35,267 nt of DNA from a virus. Taxonomy: Duplodnaviria; Heunggongvirae; Uroviricota; Caudoviricetes. Numbering within the stretch: the stretch's first letter is position 1; the number at the start of each line of letters is the position of its first letter. The stretch lies in IMG/VR virus record IMGVR_UViG_2737471818_000009. The stretch is one strand, 5' to 3'. A program made the translations under genes and the position numbers. Below are positions 20,994 through 35,267 of the stretch, in pieces. The notes under the pieces were generated by a model that did not search any database, was not told the DNA's origin, and saw nothing but the letters and a program-made list of their open reading frames with translations.

Positions 20994-22781
20994 ATGGCGT
21001 ATTCTGATGAGGTGATTGCTACTGCAAAATCGCTCTATCTGAAAAGACACACACCAAAAGAAATACAAAAGAAGCTCGGACTGAACAGCCCGCGAATTGT
21101 TTATTACTGGGCGACAAAGTTTGAGTGGTACACACAGCTTAATACTGAAGGCGTGGAGGATGTTATCGCCCGGCGTCTCGCTGTACTGGCGGAGCGTGAC
21201 CATAAAACCCAGGAAGAACACGATGAACTCGATCGCCTGATTGGCCACCACGTCAAACTGATGTCGGTCAGGAACAAGCACACAGAACGCATGGCTGAGA
21301 TTGCGCGAATGGGAGTGGACATTCCCCAGCCTGGCCGTTATGGAAAAGAAGAACGCGGAGAAAAAGGTGCAGGCAAGAAAGAGCGCCCCCGTAAAGCTAA
21401 TGACGTTACCGGACTGACTGCTGAAAGTTTTGAGCCGTTTACGAAGAAACTGTTTGCTTATCAGTTGCGCCTGCGTGAAAACAAATTCCGCCGTGTACGC
21501 AATCTGCTTAAATCCCGCCAGATTGGGGCGACGTATTACTTCGCGTTTGAGGCGTTTGAAGATGCGGTATTAACCGGCGACACACAGATATTTTTATCGG
21601 CATCAAAACGTCAGGCCGAAGTGTTCCGTACTTATATTGTAAAAATTGCACAAACAGAGTTTGGCATTCCCATTAAAGGCAATCCGGTTAAGTTAAGTAA
21701 TCTGGCTGAACTGTATTTTCTGGCGACCAACAGTAACACAGCGCAGTCAAACAGCGGCCACCTGTATATTGATGAATACCTGTGGATCCCCGGTTTTCGC
21801 CGTCTCAATGAAGTGGCATCAGGGATGGCCACCCATAAACACTGGCGCATTACCTATTTCTCCACGCCGTCATCCAAAACACACCAGGGTTACCCGTTCT
21901 GGTCTGGCGATGAATGGTGCAAAGGCGATCCGAAACGAAAAGGGGTTGAGTTTCCGTCCTTTGATGAGCTGCGCGATGGTGGGCGTGAATGTCCGGATGG
22001 TCAGTGGCGCTATGTGGTTACGCTGGAAGATGCCATTGCCGGCGGCTTTAACCTTGCTGATATCAACGAGCTGCGCGAGCGATACAACGAAACAGCGTTC
22101 AATATGCTGTTTATGTGTGTGTTTGTGGATGACAAAGAGAGCGTCTTTAAATTCGATGATCTTGTGCGTTGTGGTGTTGATGTCAGTACGTGGGAGGATT
22201 TTCACCCGGAAGAGTCTATGCCATTTGGTAACCGTGAGGTGTGGGGCGGCTTTGACCCGGCGCGCTCCGGCGATAACGCCACATTTGTTGTGCTGGCACC
22301 GCCGCTGGTTGCGGCAGAACGATTCCGCGTGCTGGAAAAACACCACTGGCGCAGCATGTCATTCCAGTTTATGGCAGAGCGTATCCGCAGCATTAAGGCG
22401 CGCTATAACATGACGTTTATCGGCATTGACGTCACCGGTCTTGGTTACGGTGTCTTTGAGCTGGTTCAGGGATTTGCCCGCCGTGAAACAGTGGCCATTC
22501 ATTACAGCGTGGAATCCAAAAACCGCCTGGTGATGAAGATGCTGGATCTGATTTACGCCAACCGTATTGAGTGGGATGAGGAAGCCACGGATATTCCGGC
22601 ATCGTTCCTGGCCATTCGTCAGGAGTCTACCAACAGCGGCAATAAAGTCACTTTCACCGCCGAACGTAGCGAAGAAACCGGGCACGCTGACATCTTCTTT
22701 GCCATAGCTCATGCCGCAAGTAATGAACCCCTGAACTATAAGCACAAGCGCAAATCAACATGGATCCTGTCAGATGAGTAA
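20994..22781 (+). CDS. P: Terminase large (ATPase) subunit, P2 gpP-like
   Basis: 595 aa; divergent from O; overlaps the portal gene by 8 nt. Confidence 0.85.
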   Translation: MAYSDEVIATAKSLYLKRHTPKEIQKKLGLNSPRIVYYWATKFEWYTQLNTEGVEDVIARRLAVLAERDHKTQEEHDELDRLIGHHVKLMSVRNKHTERMAEIARMGVDIPQPGRYGKEERGEKGAGKKERPRKANDVTGLTAESFEPFTKKLFAYQLRLRENKFRRVRNLLKSRQIGATYYFAFEAFEDAVLTGDTQIFLSASKRQAEVFRTYIVKIAQTEFGIPIKGNPVKLSNLAELYFLATNSNTAQSNSGHLYIDEYLWIPGFRRLNEVASGMATHKHWRITYFSTPSSKTHQGYPFWSGDEWCKGDPKRKGVEFPSFDELRDGGRECPDGQWRYVVTLEDAIAGGFNLADINELRERYNETAFNMLFMCVFVDDKESVFKFDDLVRCGVDVSTWEDFHPEESMPFGNREVWGGFDPARSGDNATFVVLAPPLVAAERFRVLEKHHWRSMSFQFMAERIRSIKARYNMTFIGIDVTGLGYGVFELVQGFARRETVAIHYSVESKNRLVMKMLDLIYANRIEWDEEATDIPASFLAIRQESTNSGNKVTFTAERSEETGHADIFFAIAHAASNEPLNYKHKRKSTWILSDE

Positions 22782-23808
22782 AAAGAAAAAATACCCCGTG
22801 TTACACGATGGCGTAGCAAAAAAAACAGCCAGCAAAATGACGTTTATTGAATTTGGTGACCCGGAACCGGTCGCTGCATGGGGCTGTTATTACGGCTCGC
22901 TCTGGGATGGTTATAACGGCTGGTACACGCCACCCATTGAGCGCATGGATCTCGCTATGTTGGCCAATATCGCACCGTATCACGGCGCGGTACTGCGTGC
23001 GCGCGTCAATATGATCATGCAGGGTTTTCGTGGGGGTGGTGGTATGACACACGCCGCCATGGCGGCAGCGGTGACCAATCTGCTGATATTCGGGGATATG
23101 GGACTGCTTAAAGTGCGCAATGGCTTCGGGCGGGTGGTGCGCCTGCATACGTTGCCTTCTCTGTACCTGCGGCGTAACAACGAGGGTGGCACGGTGATTG
23201 TGCAGGCGTCACTGGAAGATCTCGTTTACCCGCCAGGCGAAGTGGTGTTCGTGGCCATTTATGACCCGCAACAGCAGGTTTACGGTGTCCCGGATTATAT
23301 TCACGGGATGGAATCTGCCATGCTGAATGTGGATGCCACCCGCTTTCGCCGCAAGTATTACAAGAACGGCGCACATCTGGGTTATATCCTGTATTCCACT
23401 GACCCGGACATGGATCCCGAGCTCGAGGCGGAATTCCGTAAAAAGATAGAGGCGTCAAAAGGGGCGGGCAATTTTAAATCCATGTTTATCAATATACCTG
23501 GCGGAGACAAAGAAGGCGTTAAGGTGATCCCTATCGGGGATTCAGGTACAAAAGATGAGTTCCTGAATATAAAAACCATCAGTGCCCAGGATCAGCTCGT
23601 TGCGCACCGTTTTCCACCCGGACTTGCCGGCATCATCCCCGCAAATACGGCCGGGCTTGGTGATCCGCTGAAATCCCGCGAGGCATATTACAGAGATGAG
23701 GTTATTCCGATGCGCCGTCTGATTATGGAGGGTATCAACAGCGATCCGGATATCAGACGGCTGGGGCAGGTGGAATTTATTCTTGAATTTAACGAATCCA
23801 CGGAGTGA
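22774..23808 (+). CDS. Q: Portal protein, P2 gpQ-like
   Basis: 344 aa, the same length as P2 gpQ; P-then-Q order on one strand as in P2. Confidence 0.85.
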   Translation: MSKKKKYPVLHDGVAKKTASKMTFIEFGDPEPVAAWGCYYGSLWDGYNGWYTPPIERMDLAMLANIAPYHGAVLRARVNMIMQGFRGGGGMTHAAMAAAVTNLLIFGDMGLLKVRNGFGRVVRLHTLPSLYLRRNNEGGTVIVQASLEDLVYPPGEVVFVAIYDPQQQVYGVPDYIHGMESAMLNVDATRFRRKYYKNGAHLGYILYSTDPDMDPELEAEFRKKIEASKGAGNFKSMFINIPGGDKEGVKVIPIGDSGTKDEFLNIKTISAQDQLVAHRFPPGLAGIIPANTAGLGDPLKSREAYYRDEVIPMRRLIMEGINSDPDIRRLGQVEFILEFNESTE

Positions 23809-23809
23809 T

Positions 23810-23835
23810 GTGCGGTATGGGGAAAGAGCGGGTAA
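23810..23835. other. Candidate cos (cohesive end) site
   Basis: cggtatggggaaagagcgg just past the portal stop shares a GGGGAAAG core with the P2/186 cohesive-end sequence as I recall it; P2-family cos lies beside the 3' end of Q. Confidence 0.3.
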
Positions 23836-23873
23836 AATCGGCGGCAGTAAAACGCTGTTCCGGGAGGTGGAAA

Positions 23874-24131
23874 ATGCGCAGACAGAAAGCGCGATGTCAT
23901 TGCTGCGGTGCACATGCAGTGATTGAGAAAACAGCCTGGAAAACCGATCAGTTTGCTGATGTGTATTACCGTTGCACCCGTCTCGAGTGCGGACATACCT
24001 GGGTGATGAATCTGACCTACTCGCACACACTGGTGCCCAGCGGGCTGGATAACGGTGTGTTAAAGCTGTTGATTGAACGGATGCGCCCAGAAGAAAAACA
24101 GATGGCGCTGGAGCTGTTGCAGGCTGGATAG
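23874..24131 (+). CDS. ogr: Late gene transcriptional activator, Ogr/Delta zinc-finger family
   Basis: 85 aa from ATG 23874 (GGAGG RBS); C-x2-C ... C-x4-C arrangement (CHCCGAH ... CTRLECGH); the track ORF 23805..24131 is over-extended upstream. Confidence 0.7.
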   Translation: MRRQKARCHCCGAHAVIEKTAWKTDQFADVYYRCTRLECGHTWVMNLTYSHTLVPSGLDNGVLKLLIERMRPEEKQMALELLQAG

Positions 24132-24153
24132 CTGACGCGCTTCGCTTGTCCAA

Positions 24154-24199
24154 CCCGGAACGGGCACACAAAGAATTTGCGCACCCGTTCCGGGTTTTC
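24154..24199 (+). terminator. Rho-independent terminator shared by the convergent ogr and rrf2-like genes
   Basis: Perfect 11-bp inverted repeat cccggaacggg (24154..24164) / cccgttccggg (24184..24194) followed by ttttc. Confidence 0.6.
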
Positions 24200-24571
24200 T
24201 TATTCAATGGCAGACAACTGATAATTTGTGTCTTCCTGCAGGCTGGTTAAAGAAATATTATCCAGTGCAGCCAGAATAACGTGCTGTGTATATAATCCGG
24301 AACATTTCATTGCCCGAACAACATCACCAACACTGTAATTTTCTTTTGTTGGGATATATCCACCACCCGGGCCGCGTGTGGCTTTTACCAGGCTACTTTC
24401 CCGTAAATATCTGAATATTTGCTCCAGATATGACAGTGAAACGGTTTCTTTGCTTAATTGCCGGAGCGAGATTGGCTTTCCGGTGTACTGTTTCACAAAT
24501 TTAATCATTACCATAACTGCAACTGATGCACGCTGGCTTCCGGAATTATCTTTCATCATGATTACTTCCAT
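24200..24571 (-). CDS. Rrf2-family winged-helix transcriptional regulator (no Cys cluster ligands)
   Basis: ISLSYLEQIFRYLRESSLVKATRGPGGGYIPTK matches the Rrf2/IscR recognition helix-wing signature; only one Cys downstream; ATG 24569..24571 overlaps the upstream stop by 1 nt. Confidence 0.65.
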   Translation of the reverse strand: MEVIMMKDNSGSQRASVAVMVMIKFVKQYTGKPISLRQLSKETVSLSYLEQIFRYLRESSLVKATRGPGGGYIPTKENYSVGDVVRAMKCSGLYTQHVILAALDNISLTSLQEDTNYQLSAIE

Positions 24572-24876
24572 TAATGGCATAAATTGATGGAGCGGGTCAG
24601 TGAATAAAGAGGCAATACATTCCATCCCTTAGAGCGCCAGCTGTCTGCAACATCTTTACTTCTTGTTATCGCCGGTATTCCAATAGGATTATTTGCGTGC
24701 ATCCATGCCACTGGCTCTGCTTCCAGTGATGCAAGTGCGATTTCCAGTGCGATTAACATATTGTGATCGTCTTCATCAAGACCGAACGGGATGTCTTCGC
24801 GCCACGATTTAAACTCTGTGATTTTACGTTGTAACCATTCTTTGGTAATGGTGGACATAGTTACTCCTGTTTTCAC
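24571..24876 (-). CDS. Hypothetical small protein (95-101 aa) coupled between parR and the Rrf2 gene
   Basis: Position 24874..24876 is GTG overlapping the parR stop; first ATG at 24856..24858; no recognisable motif. Confidence 0.4.
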   Translation of the reverse strand: MKTGVTMSTITKEWLQRKITEFKSWREDIPFGLDEDDHNMLIALEIALASLEAEPVAWMHANNPIGIPAITRSKDVADSWRSKGWNVLPLYSLTRSINLCH

Positions 24877-25187
24877 TTCGGGAAAAACGCCTGAATATTC
24901 TTTTTCACCTGCTGCATATGGGGGGCGCTGTCTGCTGCTGGTTGCGCCGGTTTTTCAGGCTGTACTGGTAGCGGTGGCATCCGTATTTCGTCTTCTGACC
25001 ATTCTGCCAGCGAATACGCCAACGCGGGGGTGCGTTTTATAAGAGCCAGTCCGGCCAGAAAAGCCGCGCGTTGTGCGCGGCTGCGTTCGGAGGCTGGCAG
25101 GCTGTCGAGGTAACTGCACGCCTCCCGTTCGCTCTTGACGACGGTGGGCTTCAGATAGAAACTTATCCGTCTGGTTGGTGTCGTCAT
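24873..25187 (-). CDS. parR: ParR-like centromere-binding protein (type II partition adaptor)
   Basis: 104 aa from ATG 25185..25187 (AGGAG RBS); RRISFYLKP...YLDSLPASERSRAQRAAFLAGLAL parallels plasmid R1 ParR (RRTIAFKLNP...TLDSIPQGERSRLNRAALTAGLAL, recalled); 5 nt after the parM stop. Confidence 0.7.
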   Translation of the reverse strand: MTTPTRRISFYLKPTVVKSEREACSYLDSLPASERSRAQRAAFLAGLALIKRTPALAYSLAEWSEDEIRMPPLPVQPEKPAQPAADSAPHMQQVKKNIQAFFPK

Positions 25188-25191
25188 TGAT

Positions 25192-26151
25192 TTACTCCTG
25201 GTCCATTGCGTACAGCCCATTAACCAGAGCAAACTGTGGCACCCCGTCCGCGATGAAAGTCGCATTAACTCCGCAGGCTTCGCAGATAGCGGGTGCCACA
25301 ATCTCCGCTCCTCCACCTACAACCATCACCCGCCCGTAACCCGAAAAACCCGCCAGCGCGCGGATCACGCGTTGTTTCAGTGTTTCTTCCTTTTCACGAA
25401 TAACTGCCATCAGGCTGGCGTAATGCGCGTCATTGTGGATGTGCTGGCGCAGCCAGGCTTCATCGTGGCGATGTTCGATAATGGTATTGGCGATGTGGTG
25501 ACTGGTGCGCATACCGTTGGTGGCCATCACCGACAGCACGGCATCGGCCATCAGAGAAACGCCTACGTGTGGATCGCAAAACACCTGGCTGATACCTGCC
25601 AGCTGCCCCTGAACCTTTGCCACATCCAGCGTGGTTCCGCCCAAATCCACAATCAGCAGGGATTCAAACGGACTCATGTCGGCCAGTGCTTTAAAGCCAG
25701 CCGGAATGGATTCAGGCATAACCCGCACGTTACGGATAGTGAATGCTTCGCCGTTCTGGTACTCCACCGGGCGCATAACGTTCGCTTTTTTGCGGTTGAT
25801 GTTGGCCATGTCCGGCTGTGCGTTTGTGTCGAAATACTCGCTCAGTGGCAGGGTGACAACCACATCCACCTCCTGTGGCGTGATGCCTGATTTGACCAGC
25901 GCGTGATGAATGGCAATGACATTCACATCGCTGTACTGGTATTGCGTGTCGGTCGTCTGGACAAAGCGATCGCTGACCGGATCAAAACCATAGCGCACAC
26001 CATCAAGCATGTAGTTCGCGGGCTGCGTGCCACCGAACGGCGCAGACCATTCCGACTTGAAGCTGTTCGGGCTGATGGCGTTGCGGCGTTCGCCGTTCTC
26101 AGTCCATGCCAGCTTGATGTTGGTGGAGCCGTCGTCGATACAAATTTTCAT
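25192..26151 (-). CDS. parM: ParM/StbA-like actin-fold partition ATPase
   Basis: 319 aa with IDDGSTNIKL, ISPNSFK, YSDVNVIAIHHAL, RKKANVMRPVE, MPESIPAG, DLGGTTLD and GGGAE motifs, collinear with plasmid R1 ParM. Confidence 0.85.
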   Translation of the reverse strand: MKICIDDGSTNIKLAWTENGERRNAISPNSFKSEWSAPFGGTQPANYMLDGVRYGFDPVSDRFVQTTDTQYQYSDVNVIAIHHALVKSGITPQEVDVVVTLPLSEYFDTNAQPDMANINRKKANVMRPVEYQNGEAFTIRNVRVMPESIPAGFKALADMSPFESLLIVDLGGTTLDVAKVQGQLAGISQVFCDPHVGVSLMADAVLSVMATNGMRTSHHIANTIIEHRHDEAWLRQHIHNDAHYASLMAVIREKEETLKQRVIRALAGFSGYGRVMVVGGGAEIVAPAICEACGVNATFIADGVPQFALVNGLYAMDQE

Positions 26152-26180
26152 GTCGCTTTTCCTTATGTTGATTAATTAAT

Positions 26181-26288
26181 CGTTTACGGGATTTTTAAAT
26201 CCCGTTTTTGCCTGTTTTATGCGCGCTTCATATATCGCGGCGCGTTTTTTGCTCATTTACGGGATTTGTGAATCCCGTTTCTGTCTGT
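26181..26288. repeat. Two ~38-bp direct repeats with 20-bp palindromic cores upstream of parM (parC-like centromere/operator candidate)
   Basis: ACGGGATTTTTAAATCCCGT at 26186..26205 and ACGGGATTTGTGAATCCCGT at 26259..26278, each in a tttacggg...cccgttt..ctgtttt context; the second copy lies in the last codons of gene A. Confidence 0.45.
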
Positions 26289-29053
26289 TTTTTGTTTCCA
26301 CTTGTCAGGCCACCCCGCAGCAGGTCTGCTTTGCGGCGGGCGCGTTCAGTGGTTTCACTGATTCTCTGTGCATGCTCTGCGTCGCGGATGGCGCGCAGCA
26401 TGTCAGAAAGCACGGTAACGGGGGTTTTCATGGTGTTCTGGTCCTGCTGAAGTGTGGATGCCAGACGTGCGGCGGCTTCGGGGTCTGATGCCCCCAGCTG
26501 TTCCAGATAGCTGGCGGCCGGGTTATGGCGGATCTCCGTGCTGCTTACGCCGTGATTACGGCTCAGGCGCTGCCAGAGCTGCGTGATTCGGCTGTCCGGG
26601 CGGGTATCCGGTTTGCGTACAATTTCAAATCCCTGCGGTGCAATGATGCTGCCGTCAACGTACAGACTGCCGCCCCGTAACAGGTGCTGCATCTGCTGTT
26701 CACCAATATGCAGGCCGAGAGATTCAGCAGACTCCCGCCATTCTTTAGCGAGTAATTCGTGGTTATCAGGCAAAGGCCGCTGCTGTTTGCGGCTCTGTGT
26801 CCAGCTTTGCATTTCATCACTGCTGTTTTTTGCCTGTTTGTCACGAAGCGAACGCATCAGCGCCCGGCGTTCGTGCCGTTTCAGTGAGCGCATCCATTCA
26901 TTCACTTCAACGCCGTCAGGAATCTGCGGCCACGGTGCTGGCCGTTCTTCCGGCTGTTCTGTCCCGTTGTTGCCTGTTTCCTGTACACGGGGACAGTTAT
27001 TGCCACGAGTCCAAGGGGCGGCAGGGCCGCCCTGAAGGTCAAAACCATTTTCGCGGGTGCTGTCTTCCGCTTCCGGTTTACGTCTTACCAGCTTCCAGTT
27101 ATCCGGATGCGTGCACACACGGGAGGATTCCCCGATGAGTGGTGACCAGATCCCGTAAATCTGTACACTCTGCTCGCCGTAATCGTTCAGCTCATCTGCG
27201 AGGTCGTAGGCGGTACGAATCAGGTAGTCTTTGCGTGGAACAAGTACGCCGCCCTGTTTCTCTATGTAGGTGGCAAAACATCCGGCATCGGCGGCAGCGA
27301 GTACCGCATCCATTGCGTCATTTTCCAGACGTTGCGGTCCCTGTGGGTTACGTGCCATCTGACAGGCAAGGCGGCGCAGTTCACGCCACACCTGACGGGA
27401 GGGGATGCCAAAGAACTGGAACTGGCGGACCCGGTGAAGGCGCGCCCAGCCGATGGCGCGTTCCACGCTTTCTGCCATCGTCTTTCCTGATTCGTCGTCG
27501 ATGCGCGGTTTGCCTGTTTTCGGGTCAATGCCATCCACGGCGCGGCTGTCCAGGTTCTTTCCGATGTAGGTGGCGATGTAGCTGGTCGGCGTACCTTTCG
27601 AACCGTCGACGTACTCTGCCTTAAAGCGCGGAGTTATGTCATTGCCCAGCTCGTGGCGGTCTTCGCGAATGGCAATATCACGGGTGATGTCCACGATGCT
27701 GTCGATTTCTTCAGGATGTGCAAAGACCATCATGTGCCAGTGCACGGTGCCGTCATGGTGAGGCTCCACCGTGCGAATGCCATACCAGCGCAGGCCGTCG
27801 CGGTTCAGTTTTTTGCGGACCGCCTTAAAAAACGTGTTAACCAGGTAATCGCTGGAATCGCGCATGGTGGCCCCGTTCCATTTGGGATTCGGATTACCGT
27901 TCTCTGTTGTGGCGTGGTATTTTGACGGGCAGGTGACAGTCAGAAACACCGCTCTGTCGCCACGGGCTTCGGCCAGAAGTTCCAGCCCCTTCATGGTGGC
28001 CATCATTTCTGCCTTACGGTGAACCGGGTTACTTACTCCCGCGTAATACACTGTCTCGAGATCAATCGTGAACCCGTCTTCGTTTTCCAGCATGAAACTT
28101 TTCAGGTAATCGCGTGTTTTCTCGCGCTGTGCGCGAAACTCGCTTAACGCGTCCTGGCTCAGATAAGGCGATGTTTTTCTGGAAACCAGACAGGCGGCGC
28201 GGAGTTGTTCTTCTCTCCACTCGCAACGTAACAGCCACAGTTTGCGTTTCCACCAGTCCGCACAGGTCAGGCGAAGGATTGCGCCCGGCAGCAGTTCCGT
28301 ATCCGGTTCGCTCTTGTTCAGGGCTTCGTAATGTGGCGGCATGATGTGCAGGCGTAATGCGATACGAGCCAGCATCCGGTAAGCCTTCAACATTACATCC
28401 ATGGTCAGCTCGCCATCTCTGGCACCAAAGCCATCGCAGAGTGTTTCGAAGGTGCTGCTGAACATCGCCGCGGTCATGGTGGCCAGCGTCTGTATCTGGT
28501 GCTTGTTGAGCTGCGGCAGGTAAAGCAAATCGTCCAGGCGTTCGCGCCCGGCAAGGGAGCGATAACCCGGTGTCAGCCAGCGATGATCGGTGCGGTCCAG
28601 ACGTTCGAATATTTTGCGCAGGGTCCCACGCGCATAGCGTTCTGCCTGCCTGGCGTTTTTTCCTTTCTGACGATCGGCTTCCTGTTTTTTGCGCAGGAAG
28701 GAGAGGTGGCGGCTCAGTGGTTCACGCAGATAAACAGGTAGTGCCTTTAGTGTGGCAAAGGCACGGGCTACTGGGTCTTGTTCTGTTGCCCGGCGCTTAC
28801 TGATGATGCTCTGTGCCAGCTTTTCACGCTGTCCGGCTTCCTCAAGGGATGCCATGAGTTTTTTACCCATGGCGGATTGTGCGAAAAAGGCTTCTTCCTT
28901 CGCTTCCTGTTCTTCCCGTGCCCTTTTGTCTGCCTCAAGGTAGTAACGGATGGCGCGTTGCAGGTCGGTTTCAGTTTCCTGCCTGCGCTCCGTAAATCTG
29001 GCCGGATCAATGGCTGGCCGTGGTTCATTCCAGCTCCATGCAAACTCGCTCAT
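26228..29053 (-). CDS. A: Replication initiation protein A (HUH rolling-circle endonuclease, P2/186 gpA family)
   Basis: 941 aa from ATG 29051..29053 (ATGA overlap with the upstream ORF; alternative start 29080); HUH motif TVHWHMMVF and paired-tyrosine motif YIATY. Confidence 0.85.
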   Translation of the reverse strand: MSEFAWSWNEPRPAIDPARFTERRQETETDLQRAIRYYLEADKRAREEQEAKEEAFFAQSAMGKKLMASLEEAGQREKLAQSIISKRRATEQDPVARAFATLKALPVYLREPLSRHLSFLRKKQEADRQKGKNARQAERYARGTLRKIFERLDRTDHRWLTPGYRSLAGRERLDDLLYLPQLNKHQIQTLATMTAAMFSSTFETLCDGFGARDGELTMDVMLKAYRMLARIALRLHIMPPHYEALNKSEPDTELLPGAILRLTCADWWKRKLWLLRCEWREEQLRAACLVSRKTSPYLSQDALSEFRAQREKTRDYLKSFMLENEDGFTIDLETVYYAGVSNPVHRKAEMMATMKGLELLAEARGDRAVFLTVTCPSKYHATTENGNPNPKWNGATMRDSSDYLVNTFFKAVRKKLNRDGLRWYGIRTVEPHHDGTVHWHMMVFAHPEEIDSIVDITRDIAIREDRHELGNDITPRFKAEYVDGSKGTPTSYIATYIGKNLDSRAVDGIDPKTGKPRIDDESGKTMAESVERAIGWARLHRVRQFQFFGIPSRQVWRELRRLACQMARNPQGPQRLENDAMDAVLAAADAGCFATYIEKQGGVLVPRKDYLIRTAYDLADELNDYGEQSVQIYGIWSPLIGESSRVCTHPDNWKLVRRKPEAEDSTRENGFDLQGGPAAPWTRGNNCPRVQETGNNGTEQPEERPAPWPQIPDGVEVNEWMRSLKRHERRALMRSLRDKQAKNSSDEMQSWTQSRKQQRPLPDNHELLAKEWRESAESLGLHIGEQQMQHLLRGGSLYVDGSIIAPQGFEIVRKPDTRPDSRITQLWQRLSRNHGVSSTEIRHNPAASYLEQLGASDPEAAARLASTLQQDQNTMKTPVTVLSDMLRAIRDAEHAQRISETTERARRKADLLRGGLTSGNKKQTETGFTNPVNEQKTRRDI

Positions 29054-29439
29054 GGCTGGTATCCCGTCACGCGCTGCCACTCCTGCGAGAAGATGGCGGA
29101 AAGGCGGTTAAATTCAGCGGTGTATTCACTCAGCGAGGCACACCCGCCAGCAGTGCGATGCGCCAGCATTGCCGCGAATACGGAGGCCGGGGAGTCGTAA
29201 TACGCCAGCAGTGATTCGCCGTGTGGTGTCAGGCAGTGCAACGCCAGCCCGTGTGGTGTGAAGTCCACGCGGTAGCAGTCGTCTACTGTGAAATAAAGGG
29301 TGTCCGCATTCTCCGGTTTTGTAGTGCGTGCTCTGTTGTCACGACCACGGATGTAAAGATCAAATAATCCCTGAAGAACGGGAGCCAGACGGGTGTCCTG
29401 TGTGCGCACCCATCTTGTGAAGTCATGAGCGTCAATCAT
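29050..29439 (-). CDS. Hypothetical early protein, 129 aa
   Basis: ATG 29437..29439; stop overlaps the A start; no recognisable motif. Confidence 0.4.
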   Translation of the reverse strand: MIDAHDFTRWVRTQDTRLAPVLQGLFDLYIRGRDNRARTTKPENADTLYFTVDDCYRVDFTPHGLALHCLTPHGESLLAYYDSPASVFAAMLAHRTAGGCASLSEYTAEFNRLSAIFSQEWQRVTGYQP

Positions 29440-30109: not shown

Positions 30110-30940
30110 TTACTTCACCGGAACAAACGGAACAGCGGTATTACTGGTCATGTATTGCGGCAGCGTGCCGTTCCATTTGTTGATAGCTTCCAGCTCCATA
30201 ACGCCGGGGTTCTGGCGCAGAGCTTCACCGCGCAAACGAATGGCGTCGGCTTCAGCCTGGGCTTTTGTGCGAATGGCATCAGCCTGTCCGGCTGCTTCTG
30301 CGCGTAGCATGTTGGCTTCTGCTTCGCGCTGCTTGACTTCCTGTTCGCGTTGCAGAGTTTTCTGGTTTGCCGTGACTTTGGCATTAATGCTGTCGATAAC
30401 GGTTGGTGGGTATTCCGGTTTACCGACATAAGAGAGGCTCATTACCTGAATGCCGATAGGTGTCATTTCTGCCTGAATGTCTTTAAGTGCTGAATCCAGC
30501 AGTTCAGACTTGCCGCCGTCGATAAATTTATCGGTGGTCATTTTGCTGGCCAGTCGGTTGAGTGCGTCGGCGATCTTCTGGCGCAGGTCAGTGTCGGTAA
30601 TGTCATCCACGCCTTTGCGGTAGGTCTGAAACACTGTAGTAACTTTGGATGGATCAACCTTGTAGGCCACACCGATGTGATAGCCGATGGTTGTGCCGTC
30701 ACTCATCTGAAAGCTGAACGGCTCATCGTAGGTCTTCATTTGTTTGAAGGTTGGGAAGATGTAAACCTCTGTATTCCAGCCTGTCCAGTAGCGGCCAACG
30801 CCAACTACTTCGCCGACGCCTTTGTCGTCGCCCAGCTTGTTGACTTTGATGCCCACATTACCTGGCTCAACGCGATCGCAACCAACCAGCAGGATGGCGG
30901 CAAAAAGCGGGAGAATCTGAAAGAGTTTGAATTTCTTCAT
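30110..30940 (-). CDS. SPFH/band-7 (stomatin/prohibitin-like) lipoprotein
   Basis: 276 aa; signal peptide with lipobox LLVGC; SPFH-like core; C-terminal Ala/Glu/Gln-rich coiled-coil (QREQEVKQREAEANMLRAEAAGQADAIRTKAQAEADAIRLR). Confidence 0.75.
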   Translation of the reverse strand: MKKFKLFQILPLFAAILLVGCDRVEPGNVGIKVNKLGDDKGVGEVVGVGRYWTGWNTEVYIFPTFKQMKTYDEPFSFQMSDGTTIGYHIGVAYKVDPSKVTTVFQTYRKGVDDITDTDLRQKIADALNRLASKMTTDKFIDGGKSELLDSALKDIQAEMTPIGIQVMSLSYVGKPEYPPTVIDSINAKVTANQKTLQREQEVKQREAEANMLRAEAAGQADAIRTKAQAEADAIRLRGEALRQNPGVMELEAINKWNGTLPQYMTSNTAVPFVPVK

Positions 30941-33487: not shown

Positions 33488-33814
33488 TCATGCAGCAAAA
33501 TTAAGGAAGCCTAATCCCAAATCTTCCGCCAGCTTCTTGGCTTTATTAAGCCAGTGGTTGCGCCAATCTTTACGCTCAGGAGGAAGCTGTTTCGTTGCGT
33601 CATAGACCATTTCGAGCCACTCGTTCCATAGAATGAGAAGGCGGCGTGAACTTCCTTCCTCGCCTAAAACTTCACGCTCAGTGGCCAGAGGGATGAGTCG
33701 ACGTTCCACCAACTTTCTTACGGCTGATTCGGTCTTGCCCGTGCGGCGAGCAAATTCATCGACGGTGATGGCGTCTGGGATCTTAAACAATGCCCTCAAT
33801 AGTTCTTCATTCAT
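33488..33814 (-). CDS. cox: Cox-like excisionase / early-operon regulator
   Basis: 108 aa, divergent from C; EFARRTGKTESAVRKLVERRLIP and WNEWLEMVYDATK...RKDWRNHWL parallel the architecture of P2 Cox (recalled). Confidence 0.65.
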   Translation of the reverse strand: MNEELLRALFKIPDAITVDEFARRTGKTESAVRKLVERRLIPLATEREVLGEEGSSRRLLILWNEWLEMVYDATKQLPPERKDWRNHWLNKAKKLAEDLGLGFLNFAA

Positions 33815-33908
33815 GTGATAATCTCCCTGTTTGGGGTATAGGTGAGATATTTACCCCATAGTTCAACTCATTGTTTGCATAATGCACTACATATTTGGAG
33901 AATGCAAT
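33815..33908. promoter_or_regulatory. Divergent Pe/Pc-type immunity switch region between cox and C
   Basis: 94-bp intergenic region between divergent genes; inverted repeat TGGGGTA (N14) TACCCCA; GGAG RBS for C. Confidence 0.5.
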
Positions 33909-34211
33909 ATGATTTTGGAGATTGGTGAAAAACTAAAACTAATGCGTGAAAGTGAGCGCATTACAAGTCGCAATGAGGCTGCGGAGTTAATAGGTATTCC
34001 GCATAACGCGCTATGGCGTTATGAGACTGGCGAATCCATACCCAAAGGGGATGTAATGATGAAAATCTTAAATTGTCCGCGGTTCGAAAAATATGCCTTG
34101 TGGTTTATGACTGGAAAAATTGCGCCTGAATCCGGGCAGATAGCTCCGGCTCTCGCACACTATGGGCAAGAGCCAACGGATTTACCCCCATCCGAAAGGA
34201 AAATTGGTTAA
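33909..34211 (+). CDS. C: Immunity repressor C (P2 C family)
   Basis: 100 aa from ATG 33909; C-terminal GDVMMKILNCPRFEKYALWFMTGKIAPESGQIAPALAHYGQ closely matches P2 C as recalled; the track start at 33882 is probably over-extended. Confidence 0.85.
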   Translation: MILEIGEKLKLMRESERITSRNEAAELIGIPHNALWRYETGESIPKGDVMMKILNCPRFEKYALWFMTGKIAPESGQIAPALAHYGQEPTDLPPSERKIG

Positions 34212-34277
34212 CCCTTTATTATTCTTACGTTTTACAAACTGGAAATGTCTTTCCTCGTTTCACCGGAGGGCTTGCCA

Positions 34278-35267
34278 ATGGCAATTAAAGCGCTCGATGG
34301 TGGACGGTATAAAGTGGATGTTAGACCGCGTGGCCGAAGTGGACGTCGGATTCAGCGGATTTTTAAGAAAAAGGCAGATGCAGTGGCCTTTGAGCGTTAT
34401 GTTCTCAGCCACATGCACGATAAGGAATGGCTTGAAAAGCCAACAGAGCAACGTCATCTCTCAGATCTGCTTCCGTTATGGTGGGAATTGGGTGGACGCA
34501 ATAAGCCATATGCTAACGGCGTTCTAACCAGGTTGAAAAAAATCATCAAAGAAATGAATGATCCAAGGGTTAGCCAGATTAATGCTCGTTTCATGGCAGC
34601 TTATCGAAGCTCCCGTTTATCCTTGGGAGTAAAAGAGTCTACTGTTCGGCGTGATGAGTCGGATCTCGGAGGAATGTTTACACTCTTGGCAAATGCCGGA
34701 GAATTTCACGGAGAAAATCCACTCCGCGCCCTCCCCTCTTTGAAACGAAAATCACCCGAAATGACGTACCTCACTACGGAAGAAATCGCCAAATTGCTGG
34801 ATGCAGTAAGCGGTGATGCTCGGCGGATTACGCTACTTTGTCTCAGTACTGGGGCGAGATGGGGAGAAGCGAAAAATCTGCGCGCGGAACACATCATCAA
34901 TAATCGCGTGACGTTTAACAAAACTAAAAACGGAAAAGTTCGAATTATTCCTGTCTCTGATGAAGTTGTTAGTGAGATCAAAACAAAGAAATCCGGCCTT
35001 TTGTTTGACGTCAATTATGAGGAATATCGCAAGGTGCTTCGCAGTGTTAAGCCAGACCTACCAAAAGGACAGGCTGTACATGTTCTACGCCATACCTTTG
35101 CTGCTCACTTTATGATTAATGGAGGAAATATACTTACGCTCCAGCGAATTATGGGGCACGCCACGATCCAGCAAACTATGACCTATGCGCACCTCGCTCC
35201 TGATTTCCTCCAGGATGCAATTTCACTTAATCCGTTAAAAGGAGGCATCCACATTTCATCCACATAA
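34278..35267 (+). CDS. int: Tyrosine integrase (P2 Int family)
   Basis: 329 aa from ATG 34278 (GGAGGG RBS); N-terminus MAIKALDGGRYKVDVRPRGRSGRR like P2 Int; C-terminal catalytic motifs HVLRHTFA and MTYAHLAP; stop codon is the last codon of the window. Confidence 0.9.
   Translation: MAIKALDGGRYKVDVRPRGRSGRRIQRIFKKKADAVAFERYVLSHMHDKEWLEKPTEQRHLSDLLPLWWELGGRNKPYANGVLTRLKKIIKEMNDPRVSQINARFMAAYRSSRLSLGVKESTVRRDESDLGGMFTLLANAGEFHGENPLRALPSLKRKSPEMTYLTTEEIAKLLDAVSGDARRITLLCLSTGARWGEAKNLRAEHIINNRVTFNKTKNGKVRIIPVSDEVVSEIKTKKSGLLFDVNYEEYRKVLRSVKPDLPKGQAVHVLRHTFAAHFMINGGNILTLQRIMGHATIQQTMTYAHLAPDFLQDAISLNPLKGGIHISST

Follow-up and report, generated by a model that had tools for sequence, protein, structure and literature searches.

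A ParM-ParR gene pair followed by a probably interchangeable cassette with a cluster-less mini-Rrf2 gene in a P2-family prophage

The type II (ParMRC) partition loci of plasmid R1 and pB171 (par1) encode an actin-fold ATPase, ParM, with the gene of its adaptor, ParR, directly 3' of parM, and in partition loci it is usually ParR that acts as the autoregulator. Rrf2 proteins, a separate family, bind as dimers to palindromic operators, and those members that sense through an Fe-S cluster (IscR, NsrR, RsrR) carry three cysteines and a His, Asp or Glu ligand after the wing. In P2-like phages the gpA-gpQ site is a validated defence hotspot (PMC9122126, PMC13586616). Partition genes at this hotspot were already noted by Rousset et al. 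in 2022, who found a putative partition system there in about a quarter of P2-like phages and classed these genes as having a non-defence function (PMC9122126). Finally, Ea22 proteins are reported to favour lysogeny (PMC7093339).

The stretch of DNA analysed here (35,267 nucleotides, hereafter the window) is a prophage of the P2 family whose early region is P88-like, with int and a C-like HTH gene on the plus strand and cox, repA, parMR, orfX and rrf2 on the minus strand. The four last-named genes were read as open reading frames, all on the minus strand, head to tail and tightly spaced, just as an earlier, sequence-only reading of the window had described them, and they are followed by a 21-bp hairpin. 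That reading also placed them in a known cargo hotspot, and the position is indeed the gpA-gpQ site, flanked by the replication endonuclease and portal genes. The features are:

23805..24131, plus strand: ogr/Delta-like zinc-finger gene (Pfam Ogr_Delta, 1.3e-12), convergent with the four genes and overlapping the portal stop codon; context
24152..24196, no strand assigned: 21-bp hairpin separating rrf2 from the convergent ogr-like gene; distal cassette boundary
24200..24571, minus strand: rrf2, cluster-less mini-Rrf2 winged-helix regulator of 123 aa (119 aa from ATG 24559)
24571..24858, minus strand: orfX, mosaic small phage protein of 95 aa, Ea22/EaA/ead-like type (alternative GTG start at 24876)
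24873..25187, minus strand: parR, ribbon-helix-helix adaptor of 104 aa (Pfam Plasmid_stab_B)
25192..26151, minus strand: parM, actin-like segregation ATPase of 319 aa (Pfam StbA_N and ParM_N)
26186..26205, no strand assigned: 20-bp palindrome ACGGGATTTTTAAATCCCGT, proximal copy, 35 nt upstream of the parM ATG; candidate parC and operator
26228..29080, minus strand: replication gene A, repA (Pfam Phage_GPA, 8.2e-130), upstream gene of the same early operon; context
26259..26278, no strand assigned: 20-bp palindrome ACGGGATTTGTGAATCCCGT within the repA 3' end, distal of the two copies of a 42-nt direct repeat; candidate parC

A gap of 4 nt separates the parM stop codon from the parR ATG. The parR TGA (24873-24875) does overlap the GTG at 24876 from which a frame of 95-101 aa had been proposed to begin; this GTG yields the 101-aa version of orfX, but the ATG at 24858 is the better start because it is preceded by AGGAG, and PGAP chooses the same start (95 aa). 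The one-nucleotide overlap claimed between orfX and an Rrf2-family gene of about 124 codons stands, since the orfX TAA (24571-24573) and the rrf2 ATG (24571) have one A in common, and the encoded protein is 123 aa long. PGAP begins rrf2 at the ATG at 24559 (119 aa); the motif x-[E/K]-V-[I/T]-M, which lies ahead of that start, is kept in relatives at 39-52% identity, and we therefore favour the overlapping start at 24571. PGAP gives the product of the ogr/Delta-like gene as 85 aa.

The first two genes have the hallmarks of a type II partition pair. ParM matches StbA_N (1.8e-82) and ParM_N (1.6e-67) in Pfam and aligns over its full length with ParM of plasmid R1 (1mwk, E 3.8e-92), and the motifs DDGST, DLGGTT and GGGAE are intact, so that both the phosphate- and the adenosine-binding motifs of the actin-fold ATPase are present. 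ParR, encoded directly 3' of parM, matches Plasmid_stab_B (9.2e-24) and, weakly, ParR/StbB of pB171 (2jd3, E 0.009); across alleles, conservation extends over the first 63 aa and the C-terminal tip NIQAFFPE/K, with hypervariable residues 64-95 in between. The two palindromes upstream of parM are the only such sites in the 35-kb window, where 0.03 would be expected, and in six relatives, with and without Rrf2, their stems are invariant and their loops variable. They are candidate ParR-binding sites (parC), and together with parMR they would form an actin-like partition locus of type II, which presumably keeps circular phage DNA positioned or stable, be it ahead of integration, once excised or as an episome. 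Among complete E. coli genomes, parMR is found in 1304 of 5426 (24%), with 1442 of 1444 places chromosomal; one 34.5-kb circular 'plasmid' record consists of an entire P88-like phage. Across P88-like phages ParM is 96-100% identical. The pair is a fixed and widespread feature of this phage group. A limited literature search found no functional study of ParM in these phages.

What follows parR is far less constant. In one relative (L100), other DNA replaces exactly 24199-24879, and parMR, the hairpin, ogr and the portal gene are retained. Phage P88 carries a ClpX zinc-finger gene and three small genes after parR, PV468777 a DUF4760 gene and a 280-aa gene, one group of relatives (L012-15) two extra genes and another (L016-19) five small genes without Rrf2; in some relatives genes are inserted within orfX, and others have a different ParR allele. 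The orfX-rrf2 segment, with a GC content of 41-44% against 55-60% for parMR, is compositionally foreign. Furthermore, 69 of 69 viral loci outside the P88 group that carry a short Rrf2 gene lack ParM, ParR and orfX within 4 kb, and 63 of these 69 are close to a cI-like repressor of lambdoid prophages. With parMR keeping so many cargoes, the cassette swapped precisely in L100, its composition foreign and its regulator elsewhere free of ParMR, the proposal that the four genes make up one functional module is not supported. It had been suggested that the same four genes be looked for elsewhere, and they do recur: together they occur in 37 of the 5426 E. coli genomes, all at least 95% identical (rrf2 itself is likewise in 37 genomes, all at least 95% identical), and also in Salmonella and in IMG/VR contigs. 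Every recurrence is near-identical (95-100% DNA identity), however, and therefore reflects one lineage rather than independent conservation. Nor is the arrangement undescribed, for the gene set already stands in the locus table of Rousset et al. 2022 (PMC9122126).

We consider it likely, from direct observations of gene identity, spacing, modular replacement, composition and distribution, that the four genes form the distal end of the P2-type early (cox-to-repA) operon of the prophage and represent a common phage partition pair with a small interchangeable two-gene cassette in a known hotspot, and not a new four-part machine. The orfX-rrf2 pair would be a separate, AT-richer accessory cassette inserted after the parR stop codon and before the terminator hairpin, read through from the parMR transcript and functionally untied to partition. 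This Rrf2 allele (copies with at least 97% protein identity) is always found downstream of parMR, and a lineage-specific functional link of the allele to parMR may exist.

The four genes are probably co-transcribed, with transcription predicted to come from the early promoter. We found no convincing internal promoter: one consensus-like site compares with 3.2 expected by chance, and this site, at 24848-24821 inside orfX, was not significant and was set aside. A missing consensus promoter is in itself weak evidence. The hairpin at 24152-24196 is strong (-38.9 kcal/mol, z = -6.6), as had been said of a terminator at 24154..24199, but it has a U-tract on the plus-strand (ogr) side only, the operon strand continuing after the stem with UGGACAAG. 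As a terminator it is thus canonical for ogr but non-canonical for the parM-rrf2 operon. An Rfam scan of 23500-26500 gave no matches, and the P2 cos 19-mer is absent.

OrfX has no Pfam match at E up to 1, Ead_Ea22 included, and no match in a PDB sequence search at E up to 10; it matches PHROGs 660, 60 and 5117. By tblastn, residues 1-54 resemble EaA-type proteins and residues 49-85 resemble proteins annotated Ea22 or DUF551, and the conserved linker ALASLEAEPVAW is common to proteins annotated Ea22, EaA or DUF551. Compared with the relative L012, orfX is chimeric, a fusion of two paralogues of that phage with a 38-bp overlap at 24707-24744. The AF2 model (pLDDT 85) has no informative fold match: Foldseek returned nothing from the PDB below E 0.001, and from BFVD only uncharacterised phage proteins and the N-terminal leaders of MazZ/DUF550-type proteins. 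With neither the Pfam Ead_Ea22 domain nor a likeness to the lambda Ea22 C-terminal domain, it falls outside the Ea22/ead family as so defined, and would best be described as a small phage protein of Ea22/EaA type that has recombined and evolves fast.

The Rrf2 protein is a recognisable but reduced member of its family. It matches PF02082 (3.7e-13, 50.2 bits against a cut-off of 30) over the winged helix only, and PDB IscR (4hf0) over residues 16-89 only, and its NCBIfam matches to IscR and rrf2_super lie below the equivalog cut-offs (58.8 against 207.6 bits for IscR). The best fold match of its AF2 model is apo-IscR (TM 0.70), with CymR also matched; in the C-terminal region, where the long dimerisation helix of the family would be expected, the helices of the model are short and broken (residues 92-112) and confidence is low past residue 114. 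The recognition helix and the RGxGGGY wing of the family are present, and SLSYLEQ.F and RGPGGGY are invariant. The protein had been suspected to have a single cysteine and so probably no Fe-S cluster, and we agree: there is exactly one Cys, it is unconserved among the short phage homologues, and the Cys-ligand loop is deleted in all five of them, so that the ligand set of IscR, NsrR and RsrR is missing. Estimated from 11-38 substitutions per gene, dN/dS is 0.09 for rrf2, 0.13 for parM and 0.72 for orfX; the Rrf2 protein is under purifying selection. It is this cluster-less phage mini-Rrf2 that is the uncharacterised item at the locus. A limited literature search found no functional study of a phage-encoded Rrf2 or IscR. 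The protein is probably a truncated, ligand-independent IscR-like DNA binder, and we infer that, soon after infection or induction, it would serve as a transcription factor that is constitutively active at operators of the host or the phage. The IscR type-2 operator motif is not enriched in the prophage (2 one-mismatch matches against 4.6 expected).

The alternative that survives best, although we think it rather unlikely, is that orfX and Rrf2 are a dedicated regulatory module independent of ParMR, in which a small protein and a cluster-less transcription factor would serve, for example, lysis-lysogeny or induction in the manner of exo-xis/Ea22 or other modules of a transcription factor with a small protein. 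The overlap of the orfX stop with the rrf2 start and the joint replacement of both genes in L100 fit such a module, as does the reported pro-lysogeny role of Ea22 proteins (PMC7093339). An orfX-type gene directly precedes this Rrf2 allele in every copy, overlapping it or 11 nt away, and in lambdoid prophages, too, the short Rrf2 homologue stands immediately behind a conserved ORF of 60-64 aa; the upstream partner is non-homologous between the phage groups, however, and orfX-like genes are also found without Rrf2. Moreover, orfX is recombinant and differs sharply from rrf2 in dN/dS, and its identity ranges over 72-100% while that of the Rrf2 protein holds at 98-99%. A wider conjecture, which we judge improbable as a whole, is that the mini-Rrf2 proteins are an uncharacterised family of phage IscR mimics, present in P88-like and lambdoid enterobacterial prophages and always behind a small ORF. 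Such an IscR-like factor, constitutively 'apo', would rewire the host IscR/Fe-S-iron regulon or the operators of rival phages during infection or lysogeny, with orfX or the lambdoid 64-aa protein modulating it.

A role in anti-phage defence, which had also been suggested for the operon, is very unlikely, whether for all four genes or for the cassette by itself, even though the position is a validated defence hotspot (PMC9122126, PMC13586616) and its cargo is frequently swapped. No match to ParM, ParR, orfX, Rrf2 or the Ogr-like protein was found in PADLOC-DB 2.0 at E up to 1, and nothing points to lysogen-specific expression, so the idea has no positive evidence; none of the components corresponds to a protein model of a known defence system. 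The alternative cargoes gave nothing meaningful either, only a weak Csx27-like match (1.1e-5) for the 280-aa protein of PV468777 and a marginal match to PDC-S02 (0.0046). Enzymatic or effector domains are absent, and the genes stand at the end of an early operon with no promoter of their own detected, unlike the lysogen-expressed old and tin genes. In addition, parMR occurs, with unrelated cargo, in 24% of genomes, and partition genes are non-defence by the classification of Rousset et al. (PMC9122126). Least likely of all is that Rrf2 additionally regulates the partition locus through the two 20-bp palindromes upstream of parM: although palindromes are what Rrf2 dimers bind, we rejected these as Rrf2 operators, for they stay invariant in relatives without Rrf2, P88-type phages among them, the rrf2 gene is in only 37 of the 1304 parMR-bearing genomes, and the usual autoregulator is ParR.

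On the reading that we prefer, a partition pair with exchangeable cargo, an apparently new four-gene system resolves into a well-known pair and ordinary swappable genes in a previously described hotspot. An actin-like segregation system that one in four integrating P2-like prophages keeps could tell us how temperate phages handle their episomal phase, and a sensor-less IscR-like regulator under purifying selection could reveal how phages manipulate host Fe-S and iron regulation.

Compared with known systems, the locus occupies the same position as the P2-like gpA-gpQ hotspot of Rousset et al. 2022 (PMC9122126), and its orfX-rrf2 cargo has no recognised defence domain. It resembles the type II ParMRC loci of R1 and pB171 par1 in its full-length ParM, its StbB-type ParR downstream and its repeated sites, a candidate parC, upstream of parM; it differs from them in lying at the early-operon end of an integrating P2-family prophage, in the hypervariable linker between ParR alleles, and in its candidate centromere, which consists of two 20-bp palindromes 73 bp apart where parC of R1 has ten 11-bp iterons. 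Like the lambdoid Ea22, EaA and ead genes, orfX is an early-operon accessory gene encoding N- and C-terminal sequence modules joined by the ALASLEAEPVAW linker; unlike lambda Ea22, its product is just 95 aa and has neither sequence nor fold similarity to the solved C-terminal domain, and unlike Ea22 and EaA it belongs to a P2-type phage and not to an exo-xis region. The phage-borne Rrf2 protein, at 119-123 aa against the 162 aa of IscR, has a C-terminal helix that appears short, lacks the IscR loop with Cys92, Cys98, Cys104 and His107, and falls well short of the equivalog cut-offs for IscR and CymR, but it shares with IscR and CymR the equivalents of S40, Y41, E43, Q44 and R59 and the RGPGGGY wing.

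The window is essentially one whole P2-family prophage, whose features are as follows.

34245-35267, plus strand: integrase
33882-34211, plus strand: C-like HTH gene
33488-33814, minus strand: cox
30110-30940, minus strand: SPFH/Band-7 domain protein, 276 aa (Pfam, 7.6e-31), inside the prophage early operon
26228-29080, minus strand: replication gene A, followed by the four genes
26186-26205 and 26259-26278: two 20-bp palindromes, ACGGGAyT-N4-AATCCCGT, 73 bp apart, within a 42-nt direct repeat
25192-26151, minus strand: ParM, 319 aa (Pfam StbA_N, 1.8e-82, and ParM_N, 1.6e-67, full-length)
24873-25187, minus strand: ParR, 104 aa (Pfam Plasmid_stab_B, 9.2e-24)
ATG at 24858, minus strand: orfX, 95 aa (AGGAG precedes the ATG; PGAP agrees)
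24200 to an ATG at 24571 (123 aa) or at 24559 (119 aa, PGAP), minus strand: Rrf2 (PF02082, 3.7e-13)
24152-24196: 21-bp hairpin 3' of rrf2 (-38.9 kcal/mol, z -6.6)
20994-24131, plus strand: late region with terminase (595 aa), portal (344 aa) and an ogr/Delta-like gene

Several small genes and the SPFH protein lie on the minus strand between cox and replication gene A, and the order on this strand, from cox through gene A to the four genes, therefore makes parM-parR-orfX-rrf2 the distal end of a P2-type early operon. The early region shares 95% DNA identity with phage P88 and its relatives (Xuanwuvirus, Peduoviridae), and the four-gene region is 100% identical to that of E. coli A2 (NZ_CP028772). 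The portal is only 30% identical to that of P88, and the late-gene type occurs in 43 of 5426 complete E. coli genomes. Since a P88-like early region is joined to a distantly related, rarer late module, the prophage is a hybrid. We also observed that the ogr/Delta-like gene overlaps the portal stop and thus lies beside the portal, not near the tail genes.

The four ORFs lie head-to-tail on the minus strand across 24200-26151, as the sequence-only reading had described; the details of their coupling need only minor correction. ParM aligns end-to-end with plasmid R1 ParM (1mwk; E 3.8e-92), with the nucleotide-binding motifs DDGST, DLGGTT and GGGAE intact, and ParR weakly matches pB171 ParR/StbB. 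The GTG at 24876 that was proposed to start orfX in overlap with the parR stop does exist and is a possible start, yet an unnecessary one; the ATG at 24858 appears the most plausible. The proposed overlap of the orfX stop with the rrf2 start (TAATG, 24571) is favoured over the PGAP start because the peptide x-[E/K]-V-[I/T]-M is conserved in distant homologues. The hairpin taken for the operon terminator is indeed strong, but its U-run is on the strand opposite to the four genes, where it acts for the convergent ogr-like gene. At 24565-24574 the orfX stop/Rrf2 start junction is covered by a perfect 10-bp palindrome, CCATTAATGG, which may be due to chance, or may be a small operator or coupling element.

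The gpA-gpQ region of P2-like phages is a cargo and defence hotspot (Rousset et al. 2022, PMC9122126), as confirmed by a 2026 follow-up (PMC13586616). A megablast search with 24100-26300 matched parMR in 1304 of the 5426 complete E. coli genomes but all four genes in only 37. The rrf2 gene alone likewise occurs in 37, with identity never under 95%. All four genes also recur in a Salmonella Newport prophage (95.6% DNA identity). What follows parR is otherwise varied: a ClpX-zinc-finger protein and three small ORFs in P88; DUF4760 in phage PV468777 (L003), together with a 280-aa gene that runs on the other strand; five small ORFs, the last of them orfX-like (59% identical), and no Rrf2 in L016-19; and, in L012-15, two extra genes ahead of an orfX homologue (72% identical) and Rrf2. 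The 280-aa protein (L003 3958-4800) has a weak PADLOC match to Csx27 (1.1e-5), and this slot possibly holds genuine defence cargo. In E. coli ECL27977 (L100), pairwise BLAST shows unrelated DNA in place of 24199-24879, exactly orfX-rrf2, between flanks that are kept: parR-parM (24880-26200) on one side, and the hairpin (24132-24198) with the portal/ogr region (23700-24131) on the other. In L028, orfX (85%) and Rrf2 (99%) come after extra genes and a ParR allele of P88 type (52% identical). The more distant L101 lacks parMR altogether, and its repA-ogr interval holds small genes, one of them ead/Ea22-like and another orfX-like (42% identical). GC content is 41-44% in the orfX-rrf2 cassette versus 55-60% in parMR and repA, and dN/dS against the Salmonella copy is 0.13 for ParM, 0.27 for ParR, 0.72 for orfX and 0.09 for Rrf2, from small counts (3 synonymous and 8 non-synonymous changes for orfX). 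From this distribution, the varied cargo, the breakpoints, GC and dN/dS, it follows that parMR is a fixed pair and orfX-rrf2 a discrete, replaceable and compositionally foreign cassette, bounded by the stop codon of parR on one side and by the hairpin on the other.

We consider it quite probable that a conserved partition locus of ParMRC type is followed here by a swappable accessory cassette, and that both are transcribed as part of the early operon. The undescribed four-gene module or defence system that had been suggested is not supported. That orfX and Rrf2 form a dedicated two-gene regulatory unit is possible but rather unlikely. A defence role for the four genes or the cassette is very improbable.

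The partition locus itself includes a candidate ParR centromere (parC) and operator, the pair of 20-bp palindromes, one of which sits inside the repA end. The window has these two sites and no others, against 0.03 expected by chance; the stems are invariant in six relatives with or without Rrf2, and the palindromes are conserved across P88-like phages and one Salmonella relative. Their architecture is unlike that of plasmid R1 parC. The ParR alleles keep the N-terminal 63 residues, the DNA-binding part, and the C-terminal tip NIQAFFPE/K; residues 64-95 (about 24900-24995) form a hypervariable linker, hence the megablast break inside parR. Recombination among ParR alleles is independent of ParM, whose identity remains at 96-100%. 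In the complete E. coli genomes, 1442 of 1444 places are chromosomal; a 34.5-kb circular E. coli "plasmid" record (L103, NZ_CP148288.1) holds an entire P88-like phage, integrase, cox, repA and parMR included, and may be a sign of an episomal or excised state.

OrfX has no match in Pfam, NCBIfam or PADLOC. Its AF2 model (pLDDT 85), a helical hairpin with a small beta-alpha-beta unit, finds no fold match in the PDB, and the only proteins that it resembles are uncharacterised ones from phages. In sequence, orfX shares modules with EaA-, Ea22- or DUF551-annotated proteins, and it bears no resemblance to the solved lambda Ea22 C-terminal domain. By pairwise BLAST, L012 has about 650 bp inserted within orfX; a 137-aa gene there is 100% identical to orfX over residues 1-51, and the C-terminal part is matched by an 88-aa gene. 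Both alignments overlap at 24707-24744, coding for the conserved linker ALASLEAEPVAW, so that the window orfX seems to have arisen by recombination that fused two paralogues. Both parent paralogues are present in L012-15. The linker-coding stretch, which forms the junction and is common to many Ea22/EaA/DUF551-type phage proteins, may be a recombination hotspot for module shuffling.

An IMG/VR scan for Rrf2 gave 80 loci, 11 of them in the same P88-like context. ParM, ParR and orfX are absent within 4 kb of the other 69 (38-51% identical), so the Rrf2 gene travels without ParMR. Of the 69, 63 have a cI-like repressor nearby, and 62 an exoVIII-like gene, of lambdoid Klebsiella/Citrobacter-type prophages. 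An unrelated conserved 60-64-aa ORF precedes the Rrf2 homologue in most of these loci; the pairing of a small ORF with a mini-Rrf2 does recur, but with non-homologous partners. In the lambdoid prophages this ORF (L005 3773-3967; L031-L099) follows the cI-like repressor and stands directly upstream of the short Rrf2 homologue; its product, hydrophobic at the N-terminus, contains four Cys and carries the motif DQQPxxSF at the C-terminus.

In a search of 5.8 billion proteins, the only close Rrf2 relatives were a pair of near-identical clusters (98%), of which the named one is from E. coli, and two short proteins from metagenomes (52% and 37%); the remaining matches were IscR-like proteins of 145-196 aa sharing the winged helix only, the part to which the PF02082 match is also confined. 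Our literature search turned up no work on the function of a phage-encoded Rrf2 protein. The score of the window's Rrf2 protein falls far under the IscR and CymR equivalog cut-offs, and IscR type-2 motifs are not enriched in the prophage. The remaining novelty is this cluster-less phage mini-Rrf2 family. The window's protein has, as first proposed, a single Cys, which is not conserved among homologues. Its AF2 model (pLDDT 81) best matches apo-IscR (TM 0.70), then CymR; relative to E. coli IscR, the Fe-S ligand loop is absent and the C-terminal helix shorter, whereas the recognition-helix and wing residues (SLSYLEQ.F, RGPGGGY) are kept.
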